64,000 nucleotides of DNA from Pseudomonadota bacterium (GTDB lineage Bacteria; Pseudomonadota; Alphaproteobacteria; Sphingomonadales; SMXR01): NCBI GenBank assembly GCA_022574255.1, contig JACZSK010000004.1, positions 704 through 64,703 of the forward strand, in the 5' to 3' direction. A program made the position numbers and the translations under genes. Position 1 is the first letter of the stretch, and each line of letters opens with the position of its first letter. This document shows positions 3,079 through 57,668 of the stretch, one piece after another. The notes under the pieces are model-generated. The model saw only the letters and a program-made list of their open reading frames with translations. It was not told where the DNA came from and made no database searches.

Positions 3079-3192
3079 GGTTCGCAGGGATTCGAGTGGT
3101 GGTGGACGCAGTCTCGGGCGAACCGGTCTCCGACGAAAATAAGGGCGATTTTCCTGTTAAACAGGGAATTAAATCGGTGGAACAGGGATTTT
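3079..3192 (+). repeat. Junction element copy 1 (short form)
   Basis: TGGTGGTGGACGCAGTCTCGGGCGAACCGGTCTC at 3097, CAGGGA boxes at 3162 and 3183; homologous to 37043, 40366, 57445. Confidence 0.85.
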
Positions 3193-3246
3193 TACGGGCT
3201 AAATTTTGAATCAGCCGAGCGGATTGTGACTTCTCTAATCCAATAC

Positions 3247-3410
3247 GGCCTTGTCAGGCTAAACGATCCACGGGTGTGGACAGGTTCAAGTGAGGTTTTC
3301 ACACAGGGGCAGTCGTGCTTTTCCACGCATCGAAGGCTTTGGTTTGATATTGCTTGAACGTGGGGCGGTTGATGAAATAGCGCTGAACGTAGAATGTGTT
3401 GTGGGTAATG
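3247..3410 (-). mobile_element. IS6 right-end fragment (IR plus transposase 3' end)
   Basis: IR-like GGCCTTGTCAGGCTAAA at 3247; ~3300-3402 aligns by eye with 56625-56724 (GGGCGGTTGATGA...GTAGAATGTGTTGT). Confidence 0.75.
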
Positions 3411-3412
3411 GC

Positions 3413-4804
3413 TCAACCTTCCCAGTGGCCTTCGCGCTTCAAATCCACCATCGTCTGTTCTATTGCCTGACGCAGCCGTGAGACGACAAAATCCACGTCG
3501 CTCTTCGTCATGGTCAACGGCGGCGACATGATATTGAGATCGACACTTGGACGAACAATAAGGCCAAGCTTCTCAGCACGGTCAGAAATCCACTTGCCGA
3601 TATCAATTTCTGGCGAGAAAAACGCCTTGGTTTCCTTGTCCCGCACGTTGACGACGCACATCATGAACATGTCGCCGCGGATATCGCCGACAATGGGCAG
3701 GTCGAGCAACGTGTGCAGCTGGTCGCGGAAGTAGGGACCAACTTCCTTGACGTTATCAAAGAGTTTCTCGCGCTCCATGATCTCTATGTTTTTCAGGGCC
3801 GCGGCGCAGGCCACCGGATGTCCCGAATAGGTAAAACCCATGGCAAAACAGCGGTCCTGGTCATCCGAAATCAAATCATAGATGCGATCGGAGAAAATAC
3901 AGGCACCGAGCGGCAGGTAGCCGGAGGTTAATCCCTTGGCGCAGACCAGGATATCCGGCTGAACGTCGAAAAGGTCTTTGGACACAAACCAGTGGCCGAG
4001 ACGGCCAAAGCCGGTCACCACTTCATCCGCCACATAAAGGATGTCGTATTTCTGGCAGAGCTCAAAGGTGCGCCGGTTATAGCCTTGGGGCGGCACGATC
4101 ACGCCGCCCGAACCAAGAATTGGCTCAGCCCAGAAAGCGGCGATCTTGTCCGCGCCAATCTCCAGGATCTTGTTCTCCATCTCTTGGAGGAGATAGTCGC
4201 AAAATGCTCCCTCTGTGGTAATGCCCTCCGGCGCCCGGTACAGATTAGGGCTGGCCAGATGATGAATGATGTCCGTCATGAACTGGAATTCCGGTATCCG
4301 GTCTCCCGCCTTGCCGCTGAGCGAGGCCGCAAAATAAGTGCCCCCGTGATAGGAATCATGATGGCTGAGGATATGCTTCTTGTCCGGTGTGCCACGGCTG
4401 GCCTGATAAAACTGGACCAGCCGGAAGGCCATGTCGTTGGCTGTTGACCCGCCGCCGGTATAGAACACGTGGTTGAGATCACCGGGCGCAAGCCCGGCCA
4501 GCTTTTCGCTGAGTTCCGCCGCTGGCACGTTGGTCATATCGACGAATGGATTTGCATAGGCCAGGTCCACAACCTGGCGGGCGATCGCCTCCGCCATTTC
4601 CTCGCGGCCAAGGCCAATATTGGTGCACCACATTCCGCCGACGGCGTCGAAATACTCGTTGCCCTCCGCGTCCGAGATGCGGCAGCCCTCGCCCTTTTTC
4701 ATTACCAGACTGCCCGTCTTGTCGAAGCTGGCGAAATGCTGGTACGGATGGACAAAATACCTGCGGTCCTTTTCCCAGACTTCTTTGGCGGAATTCGAGC
4801 GCAT
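3413..4804 (-). CDS. Class III PLP aminotransferase (omega-amine/polyamine transaminase)
   Basis: DAVGGMWC, SYHG, AEPILGSGGVIVPP, ADEVVTGFGR, AKGLTSGYLP, GFTYSGHP. Confidence 0.9.
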   Translation of the reverse strand: MRSNSAKEVWEKDRRYFVHPYQHFASFDKTGSLVMKKGEGCRISDAEGNEYFDAVGGMWCTNIGLGREEMAEAIARQVVDLAYANPFVDMTNVPAAELSEKLAGLAPGDLNHVFYTGGGSTANDMAFRLVQFYQASRGTPDKKHILSHHDSYHGGTYFAASLSGKAGDRIPEFQFMTDIIHHLASPNLYRAPEGITTEGAFCDYLLQEMENKILEIGADKIAAFWAEPILGSGGVIVPPQGYNRRTFELCQKYDILYVADEVVTGFGRLGHWFVSKDLFDVQPDILVCAKGLTSGYLPLGACIFSDRIYDLISDDQDRCFAMGFTYSGHPVACAAALKNIEIMEREKLFDNVKEVGPYFRDQLHTLLDLPIVGDIRGDMFMMCVVNVRDKETKAFFSPEIDIGKWISDRAEKLGLIVRPSVDLNIMSPPLTMTKSDVDFVVSRLRQAIEQTMVDLKREGHWEG

Positions 4805-4918
4805 TTATTAATCCTTTCCCCTAGAATTACCTGCAATCGCGAGGCATCACTGGAACAGACCGCCGGAAGAGCAACCCTGTTTTCCCGTATACCCGGGCCC
4901 TGAAGTAAGCACCCTGAT

Positions 4919-5974
4919 ATGAATATAGATGAGATTTCGCCGCAGGATATGCGTTTTAACCCGCCAACCTTTGAAGAAGCAGAAGTTGCGGAAAAGGTAG
5001 CCGATGCGTTCGGTCTGACGGGCCAGTGGACGCCGCTTGCGGGGGAACGGGACCAGAATTTCCGGCTCAGGGCGGAAGATGGCCATAAGTATGTTGTGAA
5101 AGTCTCTGGCCCCGACGAAGACCCCGGGAGTACGGACTTTCAGGTGCAGGCTTTGCTCTATCTGGAAAAGGGTAACCCCCAAATACCGGTGCCGCGCATC
5201 ATCCGCACAAAATCCGGCAGCTGCCTCAGCGAAATAACCGATGCGGGGGGCGTGAAGCATGCCCTTCGCGTGGTCACCTATCTTGACGGCATTCCCTATA
5301 GCGAAGGGGCTTTTCCTGACGCAGAGAATTTGCAAAAAATCGGTGCTTTTCAGGGAGAGGTCGTAAACGCGCTTGCAGGATTTGAACATGAGGCATCAAG
5401 GCATTTTATGCCGTGGAACCTCTCGAACGGTATCGCCGTGTCCAAGGATTTGTGGGCTGAGGCCGCTGATGACGTCAGGACACTCGCCGCGCCCCTGCTG
5501 GACAGATTACGCCATGAGGCCCTGCCGATACTGAACGCCTGCCCGTCGCAGGTCATACACAATGACGCGCACCCAACTAATCTCTTGCGGGCAGATGCCG
5601 TTTCACCGGACATAGTTGGCCTGATTGACTTTGGCGACATGGTCTACGCCCCCATCATCAATGATTTGGCAGTTACAGCCACCACATTTCATCGCTCTGG
5701 AATAGAAGACCTGGCTACAGTGGTGAGCCTGCTGATTGGATTTCATCGCGCACACCCGCTATCGGATGTTGAGATTTCCATGTTATGGGACGCCATAATA
5801 CTGCGCGTGCTCACAACAATTTTGCTGAGCGATATAAAACTGAATATGGATAAGGATCATGATCCTTATATCATTGAGGACAGGGTGAACGCATATGCCA
5901 AACTTGAGGTCATTTGCGGTCTGGATCACGATTCTGTGGTCAACAGACTGCGGGCTGCATGTGGATTTTGCTAG
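4919..5974 (+). CDS. APH/choline-kinase-fold phosphotransferase (hydroxylysine/amino-alcohol kinase-like)
   Basis: GERDQNFRL, YVVKV, HNDAHPTN (Brenner-type motif), GLIDFGD. Confidence 0.8.
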   Translation: MNIDEISPQDMRFNPPTFEEAEVAEKVADAFGLTGQWTPLAGERDQNFRLRAEDGHKYVVKVSGPDEDPGSTDFQVQALLYLEKGNPQIPVPRIIRTKSGSCLSEITDAGGVKHALRVVTYLDGIPYSEGAFPDAENLQKIGAFQGEVVNALAGFEHEASRHFMPWNLSNGIAVSKDLWAEAADDVRTLAAPLLDRLRHEALPILNACPSQVIHNDAHPTNLLRADAVSPDIVGLIDFGDMVYAPIINDLAVTATTFHRSGIEDLATVVSLLIGFHRAHPLSDVEISMLWDAIILRVLTTILLSDIKLNMDKDHDPYIIEDRVNAYAKLEVICGLDHDSVVNRLRAACGFC

Positions 5975-5983
5975 GGCGTCATC

Positions 5984-7243
5984 ATGGAACTGGTAGAGCG
6001 CCGAGAAAGGGCCATGGGTCCTTCATATCACCTGTTTTACGACAAGCCGGCCCACCTTGTGCGCGGCGAAGGGATTTGGCTGTGGGACGCTGACGGCCGC
6101 AAATATCTCGATTGTTATAACAATGTCGCCTCCGTCGGCCATTGTCATCCCGATGTTGTGGCGGCACTTGCTGTTCAGACGGCGACACTGAACACCCATA
6201 CACGTTACCTGCATGAGAATGTGATTGAGCTGTCGGAAAAAATCGCTTCGAAATTGCCGGGTGATTTAAGCGTTTGCTTGTTCGTTTGTACAGGCACAGA
6301 AGCCAATGATTTGGCCACCCGTATTGCCCGCACAGTCACTGGCGGCGACGGCATGATGGTGTCGGAATATAGCTATCACGGCAACTCGACATTGGTGCAT
6401 ACCCTCTCGACTGCCGATAGTGATGATCGCCCGGACTGGCTCTCTCTTTTTGAAGCCCCCTGTCGATATCGCCCGGCCTTTAAAGGCGATGATCTGCTTG
6501 AAGGCTATGTGGACTCTGTGCGCGACGCCATAGGCGACCTGAAGCGGAAAAGTCACGCGCCGGCTGCAATCATGATCGACAGCATCTTTGATTGCCCGGG
6601 TACGATTGAAGCGCCAAAGGGGTATTTTAAACAGGTATATAAATCAGTACGCGACGCCGGCGGTCTGGTAATCGCAGACGAAGTGCAAGCCGGCTATTGC
6701 CGCACGGGCAATCACTGGTGGGGGTTTGAGCATGACGGTGTCGTGCCTGATATTGTGACACTGGGCAAGCCGATGGGTGCCGGCCATCCGCTGGCTGCTG
6801 TTGTGACCACCCCGGATATCGCGGCCAGATTTGCTGCTGAATTTGAATACTTCAATACCTTTGGCGGCAATCCTGTTTCCGCTGCTGTGGGTAAGGCCGT
6901 TATCGATGTCATCGACGGGGAAAGCCTTCTTGAAAATGTCACCAGAGTTGGCGCCTACACGAAGGCAGGGCTGCAAGAACTTCAGAATCAATACGACATC
7001 ATTGGCGATGTGCGCGGACGCGGTCTTTTCTTGAGCGTCGAATTGGTGAAGGACCGCGCCGTTAAAACGCCTGACCCGGAGACGGCGCGCCAAATGGCTA
7101 ATTTAATGAAAGATGAAGGCGTGCTGCTGTCCACACACGGGCGCTACAAGAACATTCTCAAGATCAGGCCCCCAATGGTTTTTTCCAAGGAAAATGCTGA
7201 CCAATTGCTTGCGACCCTGGATGCCTGTTTCCGAAAACTATAA
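5984..7243 (+). CDS. Class III PLP enzyme, ETNPPL/PHYKPL (ammonia phospho-lyase)-like
   Basis: [59 protein letters not shown]; 9 bp downstream of the kinase. Confidence 0.75.
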
Positions 7244-7324
7244 GGCGAACGACCGCAATTCTCTTTCGATTTCCGGTCGGGCCTTTCCAGCTTATTGCCG
7301 ACGGGGCCTTGTTTTTCTTTTATT

Positions 7325-8215
7325 CTATTTGAAAATAACCGTTTTATTGCCATCGAGAAATACACGATGTTCCGTATGCAGCTTCACCGCACGGGCCAGT
7401 GCAATCGTTTCCGTGTCTCTTCCGACCGACGTCAACATTTCCGGACTGTAGGTATGGTCGACCGATTGCACGGCTTGCTCGATAATCGGACCTTCATCCA
7501 GATTTGCCGTGACATAATGCGCCGTGGCGCCAATCAGTTTTACACCCCGTTCGAAAGCCTGGTGGTAGGGCTTGGCCCCCTTAAAGCCGGGCAAAAAAGA
7601 ATGGTGGATATTAATGGCGCGACCCTCCAACTCGCGGCAAAGCTTGTCAGTCAGAATTTGCATGTAACGCGCCAGCACAACCAGTTCGGTTCTGGTTTCG
7701 CTCATAATTTCCCTCAAGGCCTGCTCTTGCTGTAATTTGGTCTCCTTCGTCATTGGCAAGTGAACAAAGCGAATGCCTAAACGTTCGACCATCGGGTGCA
7801 GATCCCTGTGGTTCGAGACGACGGCTGTAATGTCTACATTCAGCTCGCCCTTCTGATGACGATAGAGCAAATCCGCCAGACAATGGTCGAACTTGCTCAC
7901 CATGATCAGGGTGCGCGTGGGCGTCGCCGCGGAATGAATGGTCCACGCCATATCAAACTTCTCGGCCACCGACGGGAATTCAGAAATGATTTTTTCCTTG
8001 GTGGATCCGTCATTTTCGATTTCAAATGCCACACGCATAAACAGGGCATTGCTGTCGCGATCGTCAAATTGCGCCAACTCATTGATGTAGCAGTCGCGGG
8101 CCGCAAGAAAGCCAGTGACGGCTGCAACAATCCCCCTGCCACCCGCACAGGTGACCCGCAAAACTAACTTCCTGTGATCAATGTGGCTCGCCGCTGAAAG
8201 TGTTGGCATTTCCAT
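7325..8215 (-). CDS. purU: Formyltetrahydrofolate deformylase
   Basis: N-terminal ACT domain, MVSKFDHCL, LARYMQIL, INIHHSFLPGFKGAKPYHQA, GATAHYVT, LDEGPIIEQ. Confidence 0.95.
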   Translation of the reverse strand: MEMPTLSAASHIDHRKLVLRVTCAGGRGIVAAVTGFLAARDCYINELAQFDDRDSNALFMRVAFEIENDGSTKEKIISEFPSVAEKFDMAWTIHSAATPTRTLIMVSKFDHCLADLLYRHQKGELNVDITAVVSNHRDLHPMVERLGIRFVHLPMTKETKLQQEQALREIMSETRTELVVLARYMQILTDKLCRELEGRAINIHHSFLPGFKGAKPYHQAFERGVKLIGATAHYVTANLDEGPIIEQAVQSVDHTYSPEMLTSVGRDTETIALARAVKLHTEHRVFLDGNKTVIFK

Positions 8216-8339
8216 ATCCTGTATTCAGTTATTTTCTCGGCGAGAAAAATATTAAAATGTTGCGTCCGGCCCGAGCCAACACAATGACGCCGCGCCCGAC
8301 CACTGGACGGGAGCGTTCGCAGCCAATTTTATGGCGGCG

Positions 8340-8684
8340 TTAGCTGATTATAAAATAGACCTTGCGGACGGTTTCCAGGACCTCTGCCGTACCTTTCCAG
8401 CCATTTGGGAAAATCCAGCTGTCGCCCGCCTTTATCTCGGTCACGAGGCCGGATTCCGAGGTAAGAACCCAATGCCCCTTAAGAAGGTGGCAGAATTCCA
8501 TGAGATCGAGATCAAGCTGCAACTTGCCCGGCTCGCATTCCCATGTTCCGGCGAACAAATTTCCTTCTTCAAAAAAACCACTGTCCGTTTGCTTTGGAAG
8601 ATCGCCGATAGGCTCGCCGAATGATTCTGCATCGATCAAATCTGTAAGGGCGGCGCATTGTTTCTGGAGGCTGATCTCGGGCAT
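8340..8684 (-). CDS. Small cupin (DUF861/EutQ-like)
   Basis: GTWECEPG, EFCHLLKG, AGDSWIFPNGWKG, VRKVY; ATG at 8684 preceded by an AGAAAGGA RBS. Confidence 0.8.
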   Translation of the reverse strand: MPEISLQKQCAALTDLIDAESFGEPIGDLPKQTDSGFFEEGNLFAGTWECEPGKLQLDLDLMEFCHLLKGHWVLTSESGLVTEIKAGDSWIFPNGWKGTAEVLETVRKVYFIIS

Positions 8685-8783
8685 TGAATTATCCTTTCTG
8701 TTCTCATGCCGGCGCTGAGCCCTGAAACCGCGCGGAAGCGGACTCGACAAACGCCGGTTGCTTATATTACCTTCTTCTGCGCA

Positions 8784-8797
8784 TTTGTGATCACAAA
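8784..8797. promoter_or_regulatory. Palindromic operator TTTGTGATCACAAA
   Basis: Perfect 14-bp palindrome in the divergent cupin/symporter intergenic region; recurs in the island. Confidence 0.8.
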
Positions 8798-8984
8798 AAT
8801 CCTGCACTATGTAGAGTGCAAGTGATCAATTGCAAAGGTGAATTTGCCAGAATCAAGTCGAAAAATTGCGATGCAATGGCCGATTTAGTGTTGGTAGTGA
8901 CGCGATAATTGCGATATTTGCGGTATCAGCCGGTCAGCGGGTATGTTGGAAGGCGGGCGTCCCAAGGGGGGATTTCGCGATCTC

Positions 8985-10505
8985 ATGAGTACTGAAACGA
9001 TAATTCTGGTAGGGGTCAGCATCTACCTTGTAGCGATGCTTGTTATTGGCGTCGCGGTCGCGCGCCGGGCTGGCTCTCAGGAAGATTTCATAGTTGCCGG
9101 ACGCAGGTTGCCCATCTGGATATTGAGCGCCACAATTATCGCCACCTGGTTTGGCGGCGGCACCATGCTGGGGGGTGCGGGCGCCGGCTATGAAGGCGGC
9201 TTTCTGGCAGCCATAGCCGATCCTTTCGGCGGCTCCCTGGTCCTGATTCTGGTGGGTTTCTTTTTCGTGCGAACCTTCCGGCGGATGAAATTACTCACCG
9301 TTGTCGAGTTTTTTGAAGACCGGTTCGGGCGCATTGCCGGCATTGTGGCATCCGTGGGTCTGATCCTCTCGAATATCGGCTGGACAGGCGCGATGCTGGT
9401 GGCGTTTGGCCATGTATTCCAGACCCTGACCGGCATCCCCATGGAAGTGGGAATATTGGGCGGTGCGGTCATTGTTATAGGCTACACGACGGTCGGCGGA
9501 ATGTGGGCGGTGGCCCTCACCGACTTTGTTCAGGTCGTGATTCTTGCTATCGGCCTGTTCATGCTGCTCACGGTCGTGCTCATTGATGTCGGTGGCTGGA
9601 GCGCCATAGCGCCACAATTGCCGGAGCACAGCTTCCGCATGATCCCGCTTGAGCACACCACCGAGAGATGGCTGAACTATTTGCGGCTGTGGTTTATTTT
9701 TGGCCTTGCCGACCTTTCCGCGCAGACCCTTATGCAACGTGTCTTTGCCGCCAGGAATGAGCAGGTCGCGCAAAATTCTTTTTATCTGGCCGGCGCAGGA
9801 TATCTGCTGCTTGGCCTGATCCCGGTGACGCTGGGAATAATTGCCAGTGTCACCATGCCCGGCCTGGCCGACCCGGAAACCGTCATTCCCAGGATGGCAG
9901 TCGAGCATCTGCACCCTGTGGCCATCGCCATTTTCGTGGGGGCGATGCTGGCCGCCATAATGAGCAGCGCCGACAGCGCCCTTCTCGCGACCGCGAGCAT
10001 CATCAGCGTAAATATTGCACCGCTATTTAAGGCAGACATCAGGCCCGACAAGAAACTTCTGATCACGCGCATCGCCATACCGGCGTGCGGCATCATTGCA
10101 GTTTATGTGGCGCTGAAAGTGCAGGTCGTGCTCGAACTTATGTTCGACGCAAATTCTTTCATGATGGCCAGCGTTACTATTCCCTTCATCGCCGGTGTCT
10201 GGTGGAAAAAGGCCAACCGCACCGGTGCCCTCACCGCAATGGCTGTGGGCTTCATTGCGTGGGTTCTCATTGAGTGGATTTATCCCAATCTGGCAGGCGA
10301 TGTGCTCGGGCTTCTTTTCGCGGCCGCGGCAATCGCAATTGTCACGCCGCTCACCCAGTCCTTTGACCCGCCGAGACCGCTGATCGACGGAGATGGCAAG
10401 CCCATTGATCTCAGGGACCGGCTCGGTATTTTGCCGCTGTTCTCGCGGGCAAAACCGGGAAGGATAAGCTCGGATGAGGCCGACGAACCAAAGTCGCTCG
10501 GTTAG
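8985..10505 (+). CDS. Sodium:solute symporter (SSS family)
   Basis: Multi-TM protein; DFIVAGRRL, ATWFGGG, YTTVGGMWAVALTD, AAIMSSADSALL. Confidence 0.9.
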   Translation: MSTETIILVGVSIYLVAMLVIGVAVARRAGSQEDFIVAGRRLPIWILSATIIATWFGGGTMLGGAGAGYEGGFLAAIADPFGGSLVLILVGFFFVRTFRRMKLLTVVEFFEDRFGRIAGIVASVGLILSNIGWTGAMLVAFGHVFQTLTGIPMEVGILGGAVIVIGYTTVGGMWAVALTDFVQVVILAIGLFMLLTVVLIDVGGWSAIAPQLPEHSFRMIPLEHTTERWLNYLRLWFIFGLADLSAQTLMQRVFAARNEQVAQNSFYLAGAGYLLLGLIPVTLGIIASVTMPGLADPETVIPRMAVEHLHPVAIAIFVGAMLAAIMSSADSALLATASIISVNIAPLFKADIRPDKKLLITRIAIPACGIIAVYVALKVQVVLELMFDANSFMMASVTIPFIAGVWWKKANRTGALTAMAVGFIAWVLIEWIYPNLAGDVLGLLFAAAAIAIVTPLTQSFDPPRPLIDGDGKPIDLRDRLGILPLFSRAKPGRISSDEADEPKSLG

Positions 10506-10508
10506 AGG

Positions 10509-11183
10509 CTATTTCTGAAAATCCGATTCGATGCGCTCCATGCCGTCCTGTATGTCCAATCGGATTGCTTCTCTGAGGGCTATCTCGTCTTTCTTCTTCA
10601 GTGCATCGATCGCTTTTACGTGATGGTCGACCGTCAGGGACGTGCCAAGGCGGCCTATGACCATGCGCATGAAGGGTCCAAACTGAAGCCAGACGCTCTC
10701 GATTAACCGAAGAATGATGGGGCAGTCGCTGGCGCGATAGAGCGTAAAATGAAATTCCCAGTTTTTCAGGCAGTACTTATCAGGGTCGCCTCTTTCCATG
10801 GCCTCATCGACCTCGGCGTCAATGCGCTCGAGTTCCCTGATCAGGGCTTTGTCGGCATGAGGCAGAGCGCGAGCGGCAATCTCGGGCTCCAGCAGGACGC
10901 GGGCCGACCATATTTCCTGGAAACGTCTTTCGGTCATGCGAGCGACTGATATCCTGCGCGTGCTTCGCATTTCCAGCGCCCCAAGGGCGACCAGGCGCCG
11001 CACAGACTCACGCACTGGCATCGGGCTGTAACCCAGTTGCTGGGCCATTCCCCGGAGGGTCAGTATTTTCCCCGGTTCAAAGGCGCCGGTGATGATCGCA
11101 TCATACAGCGCCTTATACGCCTCTTCATGAGCAATCTTCCGATCTGGAGTTTTGTCGTTTCCACCTGACTCACTGCGGGGCAA
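10509..11183 (-). CDS. GntR-family (FCD) transcriptional regulator
   Basis: wHTH segment (DAIITGAFEPG, LGYSPMPVRESVRRL) and FCD motifs (ARVLLEPE, NWEFHFTLY); start codon uncertain. Confidence 0.9.
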   Translation of the reverse strand: MPRSESGGNDKTPDRKIAHEEAYKALYDAIITGAFEPGKILTLRGMAQQLGYSPMPVRESVRRLVALGALEMRSTRRISVARMTERRFQEIWSARVLLEPEIAARALPHADKALIRELERIDAEVDEAMERGDPDKYCLKNWEFHFTLYRASDCPIILRLIESVWLQFGPFMRMVIGRLGTSLTVDHHVKAIDALKKKDEIALREAIRLDIQDGMERIESDFQK

Positions 11184-11257
11184 AACTTGTTTCCTCTCTT
11201 GCGGCTCAAAAACGCGAATTCGCAGAATATGGATGCAGGCAACTCTGCCCTATCCTC

Positions 11258-11296
11258 TTGATTTCACCAAGAGCTACTGGCACATTTGTGATCACA
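11258..11296 (+). promoter_or_regulatory. Sigma70-like promoter with overlapping TGTGATCACA operator
   Basis: TTGATT(11258)-N17-CACATT(11281) immediately followed by TGTGATCACA at 11287-11296, between gntR and the amidotransferase. Confidence 0.65.
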
Positions 11297-49081: not shown

Positions 49082-51787
49082 ATGGACAGCACAGCTACCG
49101 AATATCCGAGAAAGCAGCAAATCTCGGTCCTAACCATGAACACGGCGGCCTTCACGGTCAATTTCATGGTCTGGACTATGTTTTCCATCATCGGGATCAA
49201 GATCAAGGCCGAACTTGGCCTCAACGAAACAGAATTTGGCCTGCTGATTGCCACACCGATCCTCACCGGCTCTCTGGTGCGGCTGCCGCTGGGCCTGCTC
49301 ACCGACCGCTTCGGCGGGCGCGTCGTCTATTTCATTCAGATGCTGCTTGTGGCCATGGCGACCTACGGGCTGGCCTTTGCCAACGAATATTGGCAATACC
49401 TCGCCATCGGCCTCTGTGTCGGTCTGGCCGGCGGTTCCTTCGCCATCGGCATAGCCTATACATCCGCATGGTTCCCGAAGGAACGGCAGGGCACCGCGTT
49501 GGGTATTTTTGGCGCCGGCAACGCCGGGGCGGCGATTACCAACATGGTGGCGCCTCTGATTATCGTGGCTTTGGGTTGGCGTGCGGTACCCGAAATTTAC
49601 TCGTTGGTTATGCTGGTGATGGCCGTCGTTTTCTGGTTTTTCACCTATCCTGATCCTTTGCATGAAAGCCGAAAACAGCAGGGAACGATGCCGACGCTCG
49701 GGGAGCAGCTTGCGCCCCTTGCCGACGTCCGTGTGTGGCGATTTGGTCTCGCTTATTTCTTTGTTTTCGGTGGCTTCGTGGCGCTGGCCCTGTGGTTGCC
49801 CAGATACTACATGGCGGAGTATGGCCTGGAGCTGACGACGGCGGCTCTGATTGCCCTGTTCTTTACGCTGCCTTCGGGCCTCATCCGCGCCCTGGGCGGG
49901 TGGTTCTCAGACAAGTGGGGCGGCAGTACCGTCACTTGGTGGGTTTTCTGGGTCAGCATCATCTGCCTGTTTTTCCTCTCCTACCCGTCGACCACATTCG
50001 TAGTGCATGGAATAGAGGGCGATGTCGCCTTCCATATTGCCGTAGGCGTCGGGTTATTCACCACGCTTGTCTTTATCGTCGGTATGGCAATGGGGATCGG
50101 CAAGGCCAGCGTCTACCGCAGCCTGGCTGACCACTACCCAAAGAACATGGGCGCTGTCGGCGGCCTGGTCGGCGTTATCGGGGGCTTGGGCGGTTTCTTC
50201 CTTCCTATCATGTTCGGGATCGCCGCCGACCTGACGAATGTGCGCAGCAGCACCTTTATGCTGATGTATGTGGTTCTCGGTGGTGTAATGATCTGGACCT
50301 GGATGGCAGCCAGGCGCGAGCGCCAGGAAATCCTGGAACGCGATCCAGCCCTTCGCGAACGCATGATCGGGGGAGAGTTGCTGGGCGTGCAAGTGGCGGG
50401 TGTTGGCCGTTGGCTGCGAGACTGGCGTCCGAACGACGAGGCCTTCTGGCGGCAAACCGGCCGCGCGGTTGCCTTGCGTAATCTGATATTTTCCATGCTG
50501 CCGCTGCTGCTGTCCTTTGCTGTGTGGATGGTCTGGAGCGTGGTGGTCGTCGAGCTCCCACGGATTGGCTTTCAGTTCACGACGAGTGAATTGTTCTGGC
50601 TGGCTGGCGCGCCAGGTCTGTCGGGTGCCGCGCTGCGCCTTCTTTACTCCTTTGTCGTGCCCATTTTCGGGGGCAGGAACTGGACGGTGTTCAGTACCGC
50701 GACCCTGCTGATTCCCACGCTATGGATGGCGATAGCGGTACAGGATCCCGGTACCGATTATGCTGTATTCCTTGTCATTGCCCTGCTGTGCGGTATTGGC
50801 GGCGGAAATTTCTCCGCCAGCATGGGCAACATCAGCTTCTTCTTCCCGAAGAGGATGCAGGGCACCGCCTTGGGCTGGAACGCCGGCGTCGGCAATCTTG
50901 GCGTCGGCATTGTGCAGGCTGTGGTGCCCCTGGCGATCTACGGCGGGGCCCTCACTTTCATGGGCGGCGATTCGCAGACCCATTTGAATGGTGGCGTGGT
51001 CAGCGAAGTCTGGCTGCAGAACGCCGGGTTCATCTGGGTTCCGCTGATTCTGTTTGCGACCGTTGCGGCAGCCTGGGGCCAGAATAACATCAGGGGCGTC
51101 AAGGCGACCTTCGGCGAACAGATTGTTATTTTCCGGCGCAAGCACGCCTGGCTTTTGGCCTGGCTCTATACCGGCACTTTCGGTTCCTTCATTGGTTTTG
51201 CTGCGGCATTCCCGATCCTGCTGCTGGCGCTGTTCCCGGATTCGGGCGCTGTTCGCTGGGCGTTTATGGGGCCGTTGATAGGGGCGCTGGTCCGCCCGTT
51301 CGGGGGGTGGCTGTCCGATCGCCTCGGCGGGGCCAAGGTGACGCTTTGGAATTTCGCATTCATGCTGGCAGCGGTTTTTGCAGTTCTGGTGCTTCTGCCA
51401 TCGAAACCGGGTGATTCCGGGGTTGGCGGATTCTTCGCGGCCTTCATGTTTGTTTTTATGGCCACGGGCATCGGCAATGGATCCGTATTCCGTGTTGTGC
51501 CAACCGTATTCCTGACGCTTCACAAGCGTCGGGCTCAAGGAAAAGATCGGGCCGCACGGGATGCCGCAGTCTCCGAAGGCGAAATAGAGGCGTCCGTGGC
51601 GCTGGGCTTTACAGCATCGGTGGCCGCGCTGGGACTGTTCTTCATACCGGCGCTTGTCGCGATTTCCATTGCAGCCACGGGCACGCCTAGAGCCGCCCTG
51701 ATCGTATTCAGCATATTCATTTTGACCTGCATCCTCGCCACCTGGTGGTGGTATCGGCGTGATGGAGCAGAGGTCAGATGTGATTAG
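49082..51787 (+). CDS. narK: Fused two-domain NarK (NarK1-NarK2) nitrate/nitrite MFS transporter
   Basis: 901 aa, two MFS units; GSLVRLPLG, ALGIFGAGNAG, GGGNFSASMGNISFFFP, FGSFIGF. Confidence 0.9.
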   Translation: MDSTATEYPRKQQISVLTMNTAAFTVNFMVWTMFSIIGIKIKAELGLNETEFGLLIATPILTGSLVRLPLGLLTDRFGGRVVYFIQMLLVAMATYGLAFANEYWQYLAIGLCVGLAGGSFAIGIAYTSAWFPKERQGTALGIFGAGNAGAAITNMVAPLIIVALGWRAVPEIYSLVMLVMAVVFWFFTYPDPLHESRKQQGTMPTLGEQLAPLADVRVWRFGLAYFFVFGGFVALALWLPRYYMAEYGLELTTAALIALFFTLPSGLIRALGGWFSDKWGGSTVTWWVFWVSIICLFFLSYPSTTFVVHGIEGDVAFHIAVGVGLFTTLVFIVGMAMGIGKASVYRSLADHYPKNMGAVGGLVGVIGGLGGFFLPIMFGIAADLTNVRSSTFMLMYVVLGGVMIWTWMAARRERQEILERDPALRERMIGGELLGVQVAGVGRWLRDWRPNDEAFWRQTGRAVALRNLIFSMLPLLLSFAVWMVWSVVVVELPRIGFQFTTSELFWLAGAPGLSGAALRLLYSFVVPIFGGRNWTVFSTATLLIPTLWMAIAVQDPGTDYAVFLVIALLCGIGGGNFSASMGNISFFFPKRMQGTALGWNAGVGNLGVGIVQAVVPLAIYGGALTFMGGDSQTHLNGGVVSEVWLQNAGFIWVPLILFATVAAAWGQNNIRGVKATFGEQIVIFRRKHAWLLAWLYTGTFGSFIGFAAAFPILLLALFPDSGAVRWAFMGPLIGALVRPFGGWLSDRLGGAKVTLWNFAFMLAAVFAVLVLLPSKPGDSGVGGFFAAFMFVFMATGIGNGSVFRVVPTVFLTLHKRRAQGKDRAARDAAVSEGEIEASVALGFTASVAALGLFFIPALVAISIAATGTPRAALIVFSIFILTCILATWWWYRRDGAEVRCD

Positions 51788-51827
51788 CGACCGCACCAGC
51801 GGCAAACCAGAGACTTGAGGAGCGAAC

Positions 51828-53438
51828 ATGGCAGAAAACCTGACGAAGTGGGACCCCGAGAACGAGGAATTCTGGGAAACGACGGGCAAGCATATCGCCC
51901 AGCGGAACCTGTGGATTTCCATTCCCTGCCTCCTCTGCGGTTTCGCAGTGTGGATTTACTGGGGAATCATAACGGTGCAGATGCTCAATCTGGGCTATCC
52001 GTTTTCCCAGTCCGAGCTGTTCACCCTGACCGCGATTGCCGGACTTTCGGGCGCCACGCTGCGTATCCCCAGCACCTTTTTCATCCGCCTTGCGGGTGGC
52101 CGGAATACAATTTTCCTGACCACCGCGCTGCTGATTGTGCCGGCTGCGGGCACCGGCTTCGCCCTGCTCAATCCCGATACGCCACTTTGGACTTACCAAC
52201 TGCTGGCGCTGTTGTCGGGATTTGGCGGCGGTAATTTTGCCTCATCCATGTCGAACATCAGTTTTTTCTATCCCAAACGCATGCAGGGACTGTCGCTGGG
52301 GCTTAACGCAGGGCTTGGAAATTTCGGTGTGACCTCCATGCAGGTTCTCATTCCGCTGATCATGACGGCGGGCATTTTCGGCGGCGGCTCAATGATCCTG
52401 GAGACAACCAGCGGCACCCTCATCGGCAAGATTCCGGCTGGCTCGGAGGCCTGGATTCACAACGCCGGCTTTATCTGGGTGGTTTTTCTGGTGCCCATAT
52501 CGATCGCCGCCTGGGTCGGCATGAACAATATTCTGGACGAACATGTCTCGCCTGGCGTACGCGGGGCTCTGCCCGCCTTCGCCAAAATTCTGGGCATGCT
52601 GGCAATTGGCCTGATGACCGCGTCCGCCGGAATGTGGTTGATGCTGCCCGCTGCCTCCGGTGGCTCCGGCCTGGAGATCAGCAAGTGGATTATATTGCCA
52701 GTCGTCATCACCGTGACCGTGCTGCTTCTCAAGCTGATACCCGGCGAGGTGAAGTCGAATCTGAAGCGCCAATACAAGATCTTCGACAGCAAGCACACCT
52801 GGGCGATGACGGTCATCTACACCATGACATTTGGCTCATTCATCGGTTATTCCGCGGCCTTTCCCCTGGCAATCAAGGTGATTTTCGGCTTCAGCCATGT
52901 GGTGGGTGCGGACGGGGTAATGACCCACGGTACGGTCAACCCGAACGGTCCCAGCGCGCTTATGTTCGCCTGGATGGGACCCTTTATCGGCGCCCTTATC
53001 CGGCCCGTGGGCGGATGGATAGCCGATCGTATGGGTGGCGCCAAGGTCACTCAGATGATCTCGGTCGTGATGGTGGCGAGCGCCCTTGGCGTCGCTTATT
53101 TCATGAAGCAGGCCTACGCATCGGCGACACCCGAAGATTATTTTGTGCCCTTCTTCATTCTTTTTCTGGTGCTTTTCACGGCGACCGGAATTGGCAATGG
53201 TTCGACGTTCCGGACCATCGCCATGGTCTTCGACAAGGAACAGGCAGGCCCGGTGCTCGGCTGGACTTCGGCCGTTGCCGCTTATGGGGCTTTCATTATT
53301 CCCAAGGTTTTTGGCGAACAGATTCAGGCCACGACACCGGAATACGCGCTCTACGGCTTCGCCGTCTTCTACGGTCTCTGCATCATTATAAACTGGTGGT
53401 TCTATTTGCGGCCGAACGCCTATGTGAAGAACCCGTGA
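51828..53438 (+). CDS. narK: NarK-family nitrate/nitrite antiporter
   Basis: WDPENEEFW, RNLWISIP, GGGNFASSMSNIS, FGSFIGY, GIGNGSTFR. Confidence 0.9.
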   Translation: MAENLTKWDPENEEFWETTGKHIAQRNLWISIPCLLCGFAVWIYWGIITVQMLNLGYPFSQSELFTLTAIAGLSGATLRIPSTFFIRLAGGRNTIFLTTALLIVPAAGTGFALLNPDTPLWTYQLLALLSGFGGGNFASSMSNISFFYPKRMQGLSLGLNAGLGNFGVTSMQVLIPLIMTAGIFGGGSMILETTSGTLIGKIPAGSEAWIHNAGFIWVVFLVPISIAAWVGMNNILDEHVSPGVRGALPAFAKILGMLAIGLMTASAGMWLMLPAASGGSGLEISKWIILPVVITVTVLLLKLIPGEVKSNLKRQYKIFDSKHTWAMTVIYTMTFGSFIGYSAAFPLAIKVIFGFSHVVGADGVMTHGTVNPNGPSALMFAWMGPFIGALIRPVGGWIADRMGGAKVTQMISVVMVASALGVAYFMKQAYASATPEDYFVPFFILFLVLFTATGIGNGSTFRTIAMVFDKEQAGPVLGWTSAVAAYGAFIIPKVFGEQIQATTPEYALYGFAVFYGLCIIINWWFYLRPNAYVKNP

Positions 53439-53714
53439 CGCGTTCTGTGGGCAAACACTGGAAAATGTTCACGGCTCACGACGCTGTGTGGGGCAATCAC
53501 GATGACGTGCTGCGACAAACCGCCACAGTGACCTCTGGTGCTGTATTTTCCATCCTTATGGATGCGCTTGTCGCCTCAACCGTGGCGGCTTGCTTAGGTG
53601 ACGGTATTAGATCGGCTTTTACAGGCCGGTGCGGGTGTGAATCTACATTTTCGAGGGGTCTCTTGGGAAAGTCCAATGGGCTCATCGTGATGCAAATCGG
53701 CGAAGAGATTATCG

Positions 53715-54476
53715 ATGATCAACCTCGACAAATGCACCACGGCGCAGCTTGAGACCATGCTGGAGGCGTCCCGCGACGTGTTTGAATGCCAAGCTGCCCT
53801 GGCAAGGACGGGCGACAATATAGTTGGTGAACTGCTTCCCAAAGAAGAGACATTTTACGAGTTCGCTCACTGTCCCCCCGGTGACGTCTTCGACAATGAA
53901 ACCCACAGCCAGTTTTACTACCACGCCCACCGGCAGGGCGAGCACGGCCATTTTCACATCTTCATGAGGGAACAAGGCATGCCCGAGCACTGCCACCCGG
54001 CCAAGCAATCCGAGGCGGGCTACATGAAGGAGAGAGATGACAGGCTCAGCCATCTGGTCGCTATTTCCATGGACAAGCGCGGCGAACCGATAGGTCTGTT
54101 CACGACCAACCGCTGGGTAACAGCTGAAAATTGGTATGCGGCGAAAGATGTCTGCGCCATGGCCGATCGTTTCAGTATTGAGCACGCCAAGCCGTCCTGG
54201 CCGGTGAATCGATGGATCACTGCCATGATTCGGCTGTTCCGCCCGCAGATCGAAGAGATTTTGCAAGAGCGCGATGCTGTCGTCGCGAAGTGGCAAGCGA
54301 CTCACCCGGACGAAGACGTCTTCGAAGACAGGAACCTGGACCTGCCCTCGGCGGTCGAGATTTCGACCATCGACCAGATCCTCGCATTGGAAACAGCCCT
54401 GACGGTACGACGCAGCAAGACGACCGCCAAAAAACAAGGGTCCGATCCTGTGGCGCAAATAGGGGAAACTCCATGA
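53715..54476 (+). CDS. His-rich hypothetical protein, paralogue 1
   Basis: HCPPGD, QFYYHAH, EHGHFHIF, HLVAISMD, LFTTNRW; duplicated downstream. Confidence 0.8.
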   Translation: MINLDKCTTAQLETMLEASRDVFECQAALARTGDNIVGELLPKEETFYEFAHCPPGDVFDNETHSQFYYHAHRQGEHGHFHIFMREQGMPEHCHPAKQSEAGYMKERDDRLSHLVAISMDKRGEPIGLFTTNRWVTAENWYAAKDVCAMADRFSIEHAKPSWPVNRWITAMIRLFRPQIEEILQERDAVVAKWQATHPDEDVFEDRNLDLPSAVEISTIDQILALETALTVRRSKTTAKKQGSDPVAQIGETP

Positions 54477-55315
54477 CAAGTTTCGACAAACACACCACAG
54501 AGCAACTCGAGACCATGCTCGAAGCCGGTTTCGAAGTGCTCGAATCCCATTATGTGCTGGCCAAGACCGGGGACACAATCGTTGGCGAGTTACTTCCTGA
54601 AGACGAAGAATTCCACGAATGGAACCATTGCCCACCGGGCGATATCATCGACAAGGATACTCACAGCCAATTCTACTATCATGCCCATCGGGACGGCGAA
54701 CATGGCCACTTTCACCTCTTCATGAGGAAGGACGGCATGCCCGAGGATTGCCGGCCCGTCGACCGGCCCGAGGCTGAGTATCTGAAAGACGAGGGCGTCA
54801 TAATGTGCCACCTGGTCGCCATTTCCATGGACGAACACGGCATCCCGATCCGGCTGTTCACGACCAACCGCTGGCTGACAGATGAATATTGGTACAGGGC
54901 GAAGGATATCTCCGCCATGCTTGATGATTTCAGCATTGAGCAGGCCAAGCCGTCCTGGCCGGTCAATCGCTGGGTGACCGCCATGGTCAGGCTGTTTCGT
55001 CCGCAGATCGAGCAAATTTTGCTGGAGCGTGACGCGCTGGTGGCAAAACTGCTCAAGGAGCAGTGGCAGGAAGAACTGTTTGAAGACCGCGATCGGGGAA
55101 TCCTGACGGAAATAGAAATATCGGTGGATGATCATATGACGGCGCTGAAGAAAGCCCTGGCGGCGCGCCGCCGGAAAGAGTCTCGGAAAACACAAAGCGA
55201 CCGGGCCGGAAACTCCAGTCGGCCTGTGCGGGCCCAGACCGGTGGCTCCCGGAAGCGGAAACCGCGCGCCCGGCGAATTAAAGCCAGCAGTCGTGCGGCG
55301 CCGGCGCAGACCTGA
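54473..55315 (+). CDS. His-rich hypothetical protein, paralogue 2
   Basis: Same motifs; ATGA overlap with paralogue 1; basic C-terminal tail. Confidence 0.8.
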   Translation: MTSFDKHTTEQLETMLEAGFEVLESHYVLAKTGDTIVGELLPEDEEFHEWNHCPPGDIIDKDTHSQFYYHAHRDGEHGHFHLFMRKDGMPEDCRPVDRPEAEYLKDEGVIMCHLVAISMDEHGIPIRLFTTNRWLTDEYWYRAKDISAMLDDFSIEQAKPSWPVNRWVTAMVRLFRPQIEQILLERDALVAKLLKEQWQEELFEDRDRGILTEIEISVDDHMTALKKALAARRRKESRKTQSDRAGNSSRPVRAQTGGSRKRKPRARRIKASSRAAPAQT

Positions 55316-55361
55316 GATCCGCGCAAAAAATGCAGGATTCACCCAAAGGAAGGATAATGAA

Positions 55362-56411
55362 ATGCCCGCCTCCGCCCCCGACAAGCAGTTTCCCCTGGCC
55401 GAAGCCAGAGAGATAGTGCGCGATCTGTTTACCCCCAATCCCGTGATCTACTGGCTGGATTTTGTCTTTCATGTGACACTGGGATGGGCCGCCGTGGTCG
55501 TGGCGCTGATCTCCCCCGCCTTTTCCGCCTTGGGTCTGGCCGCCTATATAATTGCGGCGCTCGCCCTTTACCGGGCGGTGATTTTCACCCACGAACTGGC
55601 GCATCTGAAAAAAGGCACCTTCAAATTCTTCCGGCTGGTGTGGAACGTCACCTGCGGCTTCCCGTTGATGGTGCCTTCGTTTACCTACCACGGGGTCCAT
55701 AACGACCATCACACGCGGGACATCTACGGGACCGACAGGGACGGCGAATATATCCCCTTTGCGGTGCAGAGACCGTATAGGATCGCTGCCTATATGCTTC
55801 TCATATTTGTCCTGCCGATCATTTTTGCCGCCCGCTTTCTCGTGCTGGCGCCGCTCTCCTGGCTGAACGCGTCCATGGGCCGCTTCGTTTGGGAACGCGC
55901 CTCATCACTCACCATTGATCTTTTTTACAAACGTCCCGCCTTTTCGAAACGGGATGATTCGACCTGGCGCCTGCAGGAAATCGCTACCTGTGCCTATGGC
56001 TGGACCGCCGTGGCGCTGGTCGCTGCCGGCACCCTGCCGGTCAAGTTTTTTGTGCTCTGGTACCTGATCACAATGCTGGTTTTCCTGCTGAATTCGTTGC
56101 GCACCCTGGCCGCCCATGCCTACCGGAATCCCGGCGATCAAATAATGTCGGTGTCCGAGCAGTATCTGGATTCGGTCGATGTACCGGGCAACAACTTCCT
56201 CACCCCGCTGTGGGCGCCCGTGGGACTCAGGTACCATGCCACCCACCACCTGTTTCCCAGCATGCCGTATCACGCCACGGCAAAGGCCCAGCGGCGGCTG
56301 ACGGAGAGGCTCTCCGACAACACACTTTATCTCAAAGCGACGCGGAAGAGCTTGTGGGACGCGCTGGCTACATTGTGGCGTGAGGCCCGCTGGTCAACAG
56401 CATCGGCATAA
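55362..56411 (+). CDS. Membrane fatty-acid desaturase family protein
   Basis: His boxes HELAH, HNDHH, YHATHH; TM segments. Confidence 0.85.
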   Translation: MPASAPDKQFPLAEAREIVRDLFTPNPVIYWLDFVFHVTLGWAAVVVALISPAFSALGLAAYIIAALALYRAVIFTHELAHLKKGTFKFFRLVWNVTCGFPLMVPSFTYHGVHNDHHTRDIYGTDRDGEYIPFAVQRPYRIAAYMLLIFVLPIIFAARFLVLAPLSWLNASMGRFVWERASSLTIDLFYKRPAFSKRDDSTWRLQEIATCAYGWTAVALVAAGTLPVKFFVLWYLITMLVFLLNSLRTLAAHAYRNPGDQIMSVSEQYLDSVDVPGNNFLTPLWAPVGLRYHATHHLFPSMPYHATAKAQRRLTERLSDNTLYLKATRKSLWDALATLWREARWSTASA

Positions 56412-56568
56412 AGATTTCCTGGCATGGTCGAGTGGAATAATCCCGGTCAAACCTTGCTTGTCGTCGCGCGCCCGCTTTCCGCCACATCACCCATCCGATC
56501 TTTGATACGTGAGATATTCCGCTTAGCCTGCTTGATGGTCGGGCGCCAAAGGGAATCAGCAGGGAAGG

Positions 56569-57375
56569 GACATTGTCACATTAACACGCTCGCAGTTGCA
56601 GAGATTCACGGTCGAGGTTCTTCACACAGCTGCGGCAGCATTCTCCCATACATCGAAAGCTTCGGCACGATACCGCTTGAATGTTGGGCGGTTGATGAGA
56701 TGGCGTTGAGAGTAGAATGTGTTGTAAGCGGCGGATTGAATGTTGAGGAATCGTTGAGCGGAGCCCGGTGATTTGAATCTTTGCATTTTTCGCTCTCGTC
56801 GTCGCACCGGTTGATGTGAGTTCTCAGCACGATTGTTTGACCGCTTGTTATCAATATGTTCTGCCGTTAGCCCCAGCATCCGAAACGCAGCATGATAAGA
56901 TCGGAGCTTGTCGGTTATGATCCGGGTCGGTGCCCAACCCTGCTTTTTCAATAGCTCGCGCATCAGCTTAAGAGCCGCTCTCGCATTACGTTTCCGCTGA
57001 ACAAGAAAGTCCAGAACCTCGCCTTCATTATCGGCAGCACGCCATAGAAAATGCTGCTTGCCGCTGATGACGATGACCATTTCATCCAAGTGGCAGTAGT
57101 CGCTCGGTGTTGGGCGCGTGCTGCTTAAGTTCCGGGCAATTGGCCTGCCAAATTTCAGAAACCAGCGCCTCGCGGTCTCGTAGGAAACATTCAGACCACG
57201 CTCGGCAAGAAGGTCTTCAACATCTCGATAACTGAGAGTGAAACGGGCATATAGCCAGACCGCATGGCGAATGATTTCAGGTGGGAAACGGTGGCGCTTG
57301 AAGGAAATATTTTGCATCGGAAGATGCTAACCTGGCGAGGCGCAGTGACGCGAGTCTAGTTAACGTGACAATACC
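56569..57375 (-). mobile_element. Complete IS6-family insertion sequence (~807 bp)
   Basis: 17-bp IRs GACATTGTCACATTAAC (56569) and GTTAACGTGACAATACC (57359-57375) flank the transposase; no target duplication seen. Confidence 0.9.
56622..57317 (-). CDS. IS6-family DDE transposase
   Basis: FKRHRFPPEII, HLDEM, ITDKL, NNRAENSH, MQRFKS. Confidence 0.95.
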   Translation of the reverse strand: MQNISFKRHRFPPEIIRHAVWLYARFTLSYRDVEDLLAERGLNVSYETARRWFLKFGRPIARNLSSTRPTPSDYCHLDEMVIVISGKQHFLWRAADNEGEVLDFLVQRKRNARAALKLMRELLKKQGWAPTRIITDKLRSYHAAFRMLGLTAEHIDNKRSNNRAENSHQPVRRRERKMQRFKSPGSAQRFLNIQSAAYNTFYSQRHLINRPTFKRYRAEAFDVWENAAAAV

Positions 57376-57439
57376 CGCCGGAGGGCCGCGGAACGCGGTG
57401 GTTTTGGGGGCGCGTCTCCATAAGGCGCTACGGGGAAGA

Positions 57440-57668
57440 CTGGCTGGTGGTGGGGCGAGGCGAGGGCGAACCCGTCTCTGACGAAAATAGGGGCGATTTC
57501 CCTGTTTATCAGGGAATTTACAGGGAAATTTCGCTTTTTTGGGCAGTTTTCGCCGATTCCGTCCGCTTGAAACCGCAAAAACACTGGGCTTTAACCCCAA
57601 ATTCCCTAAGGAAATTAACAGGGAACTTTTTTGAACTATCAGGGAACTAAATTCACGGAGCAGGGAAA
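57440..57668 (+). repeat. Junction element copy 4 (long form)
   Basis: TGGTGGTGGGGCGAGG..GCGAACCCGTCTC at 57445; CAGGGAA at 57510, 57521, 57619, 57640, 57661. Confidence 0.85.

Follow-up and report, generated by a model that had tools for sequence, protein, structure and literature searches.

The staphylococcal cassette chromosome (SCC, including SCCmec) is moved by Ccr serine recombinases, inserts at the 3′ end of one conserved gene and occurs as tandem cassettes with short direct repeats, some of which lack a recombinase. Integrative and conjugative elements (ICEs), integrative and mobilisable elements (IMEs) and cis-mobilisable elements (CIMEs) of the Streptococcus ICESt1/ICESt3 type grow by accretion: as set out in one review, an element integrates at the 3′ end of a target gene, decays to a recombinase-less block flanked by attachment (att) sites, and further elements integrate into the resident att site (PMC5704250). 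The tycheposons of Prochlorococcus are tRNA-anchored islands formed by successive integrations, with partial tRNAs between units, degenerate recombinases and nutrient-acquisition cargo (10.1101/2020.12.28.424599). Accretion at tRNA genes is known, as are serine-recombinase islands at tRNA-Met in Mesorhizobium (PMC10990125; PMC8627217), while canonical large serine recombinases (LSRs) are described as needing only two short sites of ~40–50 bp (PMC12286644). Here we describe a ~215-nt non-coding element that stands at four junctions within a 64,000-nt stretch (the window) of an alphaproteobacterial assembly of the Sphingomonadales (GCA_022574255.1, contig JACZSK010000004.1, here C74). Each copy is taken to mark one end of an integrative island moved by an LSR, namely the end far from the recombinase genes (the P′ side of the attachment site), and the stacking of copies in the same direction is taken as block-by-block accretion, a reading to which we give a probability of about 80%.

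SCC elements differ from these islands in recombinase clade, host and target (rlmH, not a tRNA gene), and to our knowledge they contain no long accessory array. Tandem, co-oriented blocks separated by att repeats are common to the window and to CIME accretion; the CIME systems reviewed there, however, belong mostly to tyrosine integrases and Firmicutes, whereas an LSR, Alphaproteobacteria, metabolic operons and a ~180-bp array of short boxes are found here (PMC5704250). Stepwise growth at a tRNA and recombinase decay are shared with tycheposons, 27 of 937 of which carry a large serine recombinase. On the other hand, 910 of the 937 have tyrosine recombinases and many have replication genes, no box array is described in the available text, and their inter-unit repeat is a true partial tRNA where ours is a tRNA mimic owned by the element (10.1101/2020.12.28.424599). 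The C089B-type nickel islands and serine-recombinase IMEs of Mesorhizobium resemble ours as alphaproteobacterial islands (53–172 kb there) that sit at the tRNA-Met 3′ end and have a serine recombinase and short end repeats; compared by description only, they differ in possessing a traACD mobilisation locus, with no DUF3489–DUF2924 operon, box array or stacking being mentioned in the available parts of the reports (PMC10990125; PMC8627217). Phage LSRs (phiC31, Bxb1, A118) resemble the recombinases described below in their N-terminal resolvase catalytic and recombinase domains and in a ~50-bp dyad at the attP-like junction, but the latter lack the zinc ribbon, carry an extra C-terminal domain and are accompanied by two co-operonic DUF genes and a 180-bp box array by the crossover. 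Literature searches, with most subscription journals and supplements outside their scope, returned no description of a DUF3489–DUF2924–LSR operon or of a class-wide box array, and words from the element sequence retrieved unrelated papers only. None of the matches to DUF2924, DUF3489, PF11149 or PF11994 concerned this module, as judged from abstracts.

The motif TGGTGGTG-NN-CGCAGTC-N4-GCGAACCGGTCTC is matched exactly at the start of copies 1 to 3, whereas in the fourth copy the substitutions fall at specified motif positions; all four lie on the forward strand (Table 1). None of 100 shuffles of the window contained any match to the exact motif. An earlier, sequence-only reading of this DNA had placed such a motif at all four module junctions in one orientation, which holds with three exact copies and one diverged; the N5 spacing it gave does not, having no match, as the gap before GCGAACC is 4 nt. 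Its statement that the element is absent inside the modules is borne out by a model (R1) built on the sequences of a 36-copy alignment, which gives no further copy on C74. The window contains 27 CAGGGAA boxes, where 9.5 ± 3.3 would be expected and no shuffle exceeded 21; 13 of the 27 fall within the four copies. Aligned to one another, these show two forms, copies 3 and 4 being full length and copies 1 and 2 short, without the central ~100 nt, which were apparently lost between repeated boxes. No inverted partner of the element is present within the window. Beyond C74, the 3.07-Mb, 192-contig assembly contains further copies only at C130:5756-5969 and C166:4-182, the latter cut by the contig end.

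The left edge of the element connects it to serine recombinases. The ~150–200 nt that precede copies 2 and 3 are found again on contigs C37, C41 and C130 of this assembly, and on C37 and C41 this sequence is the spacer 3′ of an LSR stop codon. C37 carries the LSR gene, a 205-nt spacer and then tRNA-Met; C41 has LSR, spacer and a tRNA 3′ fragment closely resembling the tRNA-Arg(CCT) gene on C59; and C130 reads element, ~630 nt, LSR remnant, spacer and a similar tRNA 3′ fragment. The LSR genes of C37 and C41 are partial. In the window, the short frame before the spacer of copy 3 (VPLAKQRKMLGFAG and stop) agrees with the C-terminal motif of the LSRs of C37, C41 and the relative G005, and positions 40126-40372 match the C37 LSR–spacer region at 85% over 248 nt; as this frame encodes an LSR tail, an LSR gene once lay between the ppc-like gene and copy 3. 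The spacer/element junctions of copies 1–3 form a ~50-bp dyad, with 7–9-bp arms (GGTTCGC/GCGAACC) around a 32-bp centre at TGGTGGTG; at copy 1 the inverted repeat CCGGTTCGC (3077-3085) / GCGAACCGG (3118-3126) has TGGTGGTG at its centre. In copies 1–3 homology breaks off ≤5 nt from the dyad centre, and on sequence grounds the junction has the look of an LSR attachment site. A further 9-bp inverted repeat, CCAGAGACG...CGTCTCTGG, with a ~35-nt loop is kept between copies of the spacer (window 40200-40290; C37:6872-7044). The tRNA-Met(CAT) gene beside the C37 spacer (C37:6802-6878) appears to have a G3.A70 acceptor-stem mismatch and has a lone CAGGGAA box 45 nt upstream.

The element is not confined to this genome. 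A box-pair pattern scan with one genome per species was evaluated on 80 of 100 returned stretches, and 44 of the 80 loci also had the core at a fixed 127–173 nt upstream of the box pair, leaving 42 after removal of two low-GC loci in which the 'core' was a three-mismatch chance match. These loci are nearly all alphaproteobacterial (Bradyrhizobium, Afipia, Xanthobacteraceae, Rhizobium, Marivita, Sphingomonadales, Rhodospirillaceae, Micropepsaceae and others); the core-less ones are mostly low-GC and by appearance chance hits. In the 36-sequence alignment the element begins abruptly on the left at an invariant TGG. Its 35-nt core is similar to a tRNA 3′ end (consensus TGGYGGYG-N3-GCAGTC-N6-CGAAC-NN-GTCTC), and it carries 5–7 CAGGGAA boxes. 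After the core come a box palindrome and a single box, then ~75 nt that vary in sequence but not in length, and lastly another pair of boxes and two boxes 21 bp apart. This ~180-bp box array is class-wide and always adjoins the crossover dyad, while nothing is conserved left of the TGG and many copies have unrelated left flanks. Among 151 alphaproteobacterial genomes, each from a different genus, R1 finds the element in 41.

The recombinase genes form an operon of overlapping genes, usually encoding DUF3489 (winged-helix-like), DUF2924 and the LSR, and the element and DUF2924 tend to occur in the same genomes of this sample. DUF2924 is found in 37 genomes and coincides with the element in 24; 17 have only the element, 13 only DUF2924 and 97 neither of the two (odds ratio 10.5, Fisher p = 1.8e-8; with the unpublished genome G072 left out, 10.1 and p = 4e-8). 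Where two copies follow each other on a contig at a distance of less than 70 kb they point the same way, as all 23 such pairs do in the nine genomes that have them (binomial p = 2e-7), eight pairs coming from G017, five from G045, three from the present genome (G000), two from G175 and one each from G132, G079, G164, G105 and G061.

Full units are seen in other genomes. Contig C60 of G005 holds a complete 37.6-kb unit, in which the element at 12351 (+) is followed by cargo, by DUF2924 (47691) and by a frame of LSR size, open over 629 codons from stop to stop and closing at 49789; a spacer of 200 nt then leads to tRNA-Met(CAT) on the opposite strand (49989-50065). G017, a Sphingomonadales metagenome-assembled genome (MAG) consisting of a complete 4.05-Mb chromosome, has 14 copies (E ≤ 1e-6) in co-oriented clusters. 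All eight of its DUF2924 hits lie 10–62 kb downstream of a same-strand copy, seven being followed by an LSR gene or fragment; the eighth is a DUF2924 fragment in a decayed junction module that also retains LSR residues 265-586. One LSR stop codon in G017 lies 55 nt before the next copy, so that two units stand in tandem. The terminal LSR genes of this chromosome face five convergent tRNA genes, for Ser (two cases), Gln, Ala and Met, to which Arg is added when all genomes are considered, and the LSR of locus L056 also has a convergent tRNA gene after it. A recombinase gene is present at one unit end on C60 of G005, at six G017 loci and on C37 and C41 of this genome, with the CCA end of tRNA-Met abutting the LSR spacer on C37 and on C60 of G005. 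The unit ends carry a direct repeat, GGGTGGTGG at the element edge and tRNA-Met junction of G005, and TGGTGGT at C37 and window copies 1–4 in this genome. More broadly, the first 6–7 nt of the core track the CCA end of the local tRNA (TGGTGG or TGGCGG). In other taxa the element has an LSR C-terminus immediately to its left, at L098, L090, L068 and L030 and, as a weak case, at L087; L032 has a truncated LSR after the element; and in L045, L056 and L067 (Rhodobacter-type) a complete box array, inverted, separates the LSR from a tRNA gene or tRNA-like 3′ end. The longest array seen, five co-oriented copies over 204 kb of the complete genome G045 (C1:4293882-4498107), has DUF2924 shortly before four of them.

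These results agree with much of what had been proposed from the letters alone. The copies had been taken for recombination or attachment sites or ends of an integrative element, which fits a left edge that is the junction to the spacer after LSR genes. Growth by tandem accretion of cargo blocks is in keeping with the co-orientation of neighbouring copies and with arrays that end at an LSR gene and a tRNA gene. A recombinase outside the window had been postulated: C74 holds no LSR gene, two partial ones with matching spacer lie on C37 and C41, and the 14-codon tail before copy 3 remains. The suggested link to serine-recombinase genes in Alphaproteobacteria also proved sound, with LSR genes or C-termini beside the element in several taxa. 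The 'integron-like logic' of that proposal fails literally, as no integron integrase, attI or attC is present, and survives as a loose analogy only, CIME accretion and tycheposons being closer; an integron was rejected since IS6 is the sole recombinase on C74 and the repeat at the junctions, 215 nt long and asymmetric, goes with serine recombinases.

A unit comprises the ~215-nt element, 3–90 kb of cargo, the recombinase genes (usually DUF3489, DUF2924 and LSR) and a 55–330-nt spacer (P), and from this anatomy we infer the following course of events. Excision as a circle would bring spacer and element together as attP, attB being a tRNA gene 3′ end; the crossover would fall in the CCA end, which would be why the element starts with TGG and why its first 35 nt resemble the complement of a tRNA acceptor/T-arm. 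Because resident junctions would keep the tRNA-like half and remain target-like, later islands could insert beside earlier ones, and co-oriented arrays would arise with units separated by spacer/element junctions. The recombinase genes of older units would decay or be deleted, here probably with the help of IS6, the outcome being recombinase-less, CIME-like cargo blocks between elements, as in the window. If so, a 55-kb stretch of metabolic appearance becomes readable as a history in which at least four cargo blocks were delivered as units and stacked at one site, and the end-piece, present in about a quarter of the sampled alphaproteobacterial families, would offer a simple marker for mapping islands and their cargo.

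Several observations weigh against this account. A DUF2924 hit is missing in 17 of the 41 element-positive genomes and the element in 13 of the 37 DUF2924-positive ones; four of nine DUF2924 hits in G045 have no same-strand copy within 100 kb upstream (five of nine do), and the geometry of G117 and G140 does not fit. In this assembly (94.6% complete, 192 contigs) the DUF2924 gene has no match, and C74, itself without an LSR gene, cannot be joined to C37 or C41. For canonical serine integrases, recombination of attP with attL or attR is not known, a difficulty for the proposed formation of arrays. The LSRs lack a zinc ribbon: PF13408 gives no hit at E ≤ 0.01 in three of three G017 LSRs, and those of G005 and G017 have 5–6 scattered cysteines and no CxxC pair. 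The ParB-type fold match of their C-terminal domain, detailed below, is weak (Z 4.4–5.2, where Z under 8 can arise by chance), and no CAGGGAA box lies within 500 nt upstream of the five LSR operons examined. Finally, no excision product, circle or empty site was seen among assembled contigs, the only material searched. Assembled contigs (Logan) of 15 of 17 sequencing runs hold part of the stretch, and in those of four runs joints (37113/37114 to 40509-40529) skip 3395–3414 nt between the boxes of copies 2 and 3. These joints were rejected as evidence of excision, since only 20–22 nt support one side, inside the repeat; they are regarded as a repeat artefact and speak neither for nor against.

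If the element were instead a portable landing pad, a decoy tRNA-like attB spread by other means into which LSR islands insert, its core could be tRNA-like and yet match none of the 45 ARAGORN tRNA genes of this genome (best 13 of 17 positions, on which count the core was also rejected as a true tRNA fragment), and both the unrelated left flanks and the element-positive genomes without DUF2924 would be understandable. We consider this unlikely, because the G005 element lies exactly one island-length from the LSR/tRNA-Met junction on the same strand, the mini-units of C130 and L032 hold only the element and a truncated LSR, and no intact two-sided target is visible, given that nothing is conserved beyond the TGG. 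ARAGORN reports no tRNA or tmRNA in the window, and the tmRNA gene on C172 is unrelated to the element. A selfish repeat (repetitive extragenic palindrome, miniature inverted-repeat transposable element or Rhizobium-specific intergenic mosaic element; REP/MITE/RIME) copied by a transposase such as that of IS6, with no relation to serine recombinases, would suit the intergenic position, often between convergent genes, the IS6 sequences beside copies 1 and 4, and the other small repeat modules and GTAAGCGTCC-type hairpins that adjoin the element. Its probability is very small: the alignments have no terminal inverted repeats and the element ends are unrelated, copies are few (≤14–15 per genome), clustered and without exception co-oriented in neighbouring pairs, the left edge falls exactly at LSR-spacer junctions, the genome-level link to DUF2924 is strong, and no IS6 accompanies the copies inspected in G004, G005 and G017. 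A Tn7- or Mu-like transposon end was likewise rejected, since the window holds no inverted copy to pair with the element and the copies inspected in those three genomes have no transposase next to them.

A structured non-coding RNA gene or riboswitch-like leader, to which the constant length and the long hairpin placed over the core by single-sequence folds might point, is extremely improbable. Rfam gives no hit at the gathering score over the whole window, and an E-value search with copy 4 (E ≤ 1) gave only the chance hit sau-5949 (21.6 bits against a gathering score of 56). RNAalifold on 36 copies yields 11 pairs, all within the invariant boxes and with no compensatory change, single-sequence fold z-scores of -0.5 to -2.7 are unremarkable, and the element has no fixed relation to downstream genes. 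It is also highly improbable that a host regulator or nucleoid protein binds the element as a site array controlling neighbouring operons, even though the boxes are phased and invariant, copy 3 lies upstream of the nar genes and some boxes may fit the IHF consensus. Three of the four window copies have a convergent gene whose 3′ end faces their right end, the genes next to the element are not related from one genome to another, and the LSR spacer junctions would be left unexplained. Two further candidates were discarded: a tyrosine integrase, with no PF00589 hit beside a copy in G017 or this genome, and a replichore- or Ter-like orientation, with both orientations found in the interleaved G017 clusters.

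The recombinase itself is distinctive. The three G017 LSRs scanned match PF00239 (E about 1e-38) and PF07508 (E 1e-13 to 4e-15), and the LSRs end in a conserved, helix-turn-helix-like domain of ~90 aa. The model of these C-terminal 90 aa (pLDDT 84) is closest to the DNA-binding domains of ParB, Spo0J, KorB and SopB, with Foldseek E-values of 0.65–2 and Z-scores of 5.2, 4.8, 4.8 and 4.6 over 80–93 residues in an independent all-against-all search. The boxes are invariant in sequence, both orientations and helical phase (21-bp phasing), a conservation pattern that fits protein-binding DNA. Boxes as operators of the recombinase operon were rejected on the count upstream of the five operons; as none was found there, nothing ties the boxes to a particular element-encoded protein. 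The array may be an accessory site for the recombination complex, for which we see slightly less than an even chance, or possibly an origin from which the circle is transferred or replicated. Candidate binders are the C-terminal helix-turn-helix domain of the LSR, DUF2924 and DUF3489. More tentatively, and on balance doubtfully, the islands could represent a class-wide, undescribed family of serine-recombinase islands with arm-type accessory sites, in which the C-terminal domain, alone or with DUF2924/DUF3489, would bind the phased CAGGGAA array and the tRNA-mimicking core would allow indefinite stacking. Such binding, which in Rhodobacter-type elements would also involve the inverted array at the opposite end, would pair the island ends and decide in which direction recombination runs, as a serine-recombinase counterpart of the lambda Int arm-site system. 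The family would then be a general vehicle by which entire metabolic operons (nitrate respiration, anaplerotic carboxylase, amine catabolism) move across Alphaproteobacteria. LSRs are valued in genome engineering for needing only two short sites; a widespread zinc-ribbon-less clade with an extra DNA-binding domain, two helper genes and a 180-bp array would differ in site choice and directionality.

Table 1. Element copies, spacers, recombinase remnant, insertion-sequence genes and cargo blocks of the window
Feature	Position	Strand	Evidence
Fragment of an IS6-family transposase (N-terminal 70 aa), close to copy 1 on its left	2759..3004	-	NF033587 E 1.3e-14, profile positions 2-70 of 202
Last ~26-33 nt of LSR-downstream spacer (putative P half-site), truncated by IS6 fragment	3071..3096	+	blastn against C37 spacer: 3071-3103, 94% over 33 nt
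Copy 1, short form: putative crossover and tRNA-like core, box palindrome, terminal boxes	3097..3195	+	exact motif; R1 model positions 1-92, E 6e-12
Cargo block 1: aminotransferases, gamma-glutamyl-amine synthetase-like, agmatinase, aldehyde dehydrogenase, flavin adenine dinucleotide (FAD) oxidases, GcvT-like genes, TonB receptor	3413..36890		NCBIfam and Pfam
Last ~105 nt of LSR-downstream spacer (putative P arm), no LSR gene	36939..37042	+	blastn against C37: 36939-37057, 82% over 119 nt
Copy 2, short form	37043..37150	+	exact motif; R1 E 1.9e-10
Cargo block 2: single divergent phosphoenolpyruvate (PEP)-carboxylase-like gene, 931 aa	37179..39974	-	Pfam PF00311 E 7.9e-17
Remnant: last 14 codons and stop of lost LSR gene	40121..40165	+	translation VPLAKQRKMLGFAG and stop
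Complete ~200-nt LSR-downstream spacer (putative P arm) with 9-bp inverted repeat	40166..40365	+	blastn, alignment
Copy 3, full length	40366..40577	+	exact motif; R1 E 2.1e-35, model positions 1-214
Cargo block 3: narGHJI (NarI fused to cytochrome c), narK genes, DUF6969 gene, fatty-acid desaturase	40859..56411	+	NCBIfam/Pfam
Complete gene for an IS6-family transposase, 128 nt to the left of copy 4	56622..57317	-	NF033587 E 2e-63, 213.8 bits against cut-off 125
Copy 4, full length, diverged core	57445..57671	+	5 motif substitutions; R1 E 2e-39, model positions 1-217
Cargo block 4: acyl-coenzyme A (acyl-CoA) synthetase, Rieske ferredoxin, acyl-CoA dehydrogenase, short-chain dehydrogenase/reductase (SDR), TonB receptor; runs past window end	57694..64000		profile scans

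The gene content of the blocks is as the first reading had it, namely an acyl-CoA ligase, amine/polyamine catabolism, a PEP-carboxylase-like gene, narGHJI-narK and acyl-CoA genes, and the cargo looks acquired. Its distribution among relatives is patchy: the ppc-like gene is found in none of eight same-family genomes, its best match (54% identity) coming from another family, while close orthologues of narG (79–80%) are present in two of the eight. The nar part (41113-53438) is collinear with G005 C24:28390-38637, with narG 80% identical, and a weak inverted copy of the element lies 450 nt beyond the end of the nar block on that contig. Relatives carrying the modules contiguously without the element were not found, all relatives being distant, incomplete MAGs. 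A blastn search of PLSDB with copy 4 gave no plasmid match.

IS6-family elements stand at three of the four junctions, as the 70-aa fragment, the full gene and an end-like remnant (about 36842-36945). The flank of the fragment (2990-3072) recurs on C84, C106, C166 and C186, and IS6 may have deleted recombinase genes. In one metagenome run a contig departs from the window at 36936 into sequence like that beside the IS6 gene (57300-57340).

Within the cargo, the ppc-like gene is a one-gene unit flanked by two junctions; Pfam and NCBIfam models match its product over the central third only (E about 1e-17), and a G017 homologue (40% identity) lies 14 kb from an array. NarI (47440-48999) appears fused to a C-terminal cytochrome c domain, giving 519 aa, and the first NarK (49082-51787) is a double transporter of 901 aa with two major facilitator superfamily (MFS) halves, the second NarK, of 536 aa, being next to it. 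The DUF6969 gene lies downstream of the nar genes here (54212-55315 and 53709-54635) and upstream in G005 (C24:27188-27925), a difference in position that indicates local rearrangement inside the nar block. Hairpin repeats of the GTAAGCGTCC type occur 5–25 nt past the last box in L032, L036, L043, L050, L051, L059 and L065, which belong to several genera.

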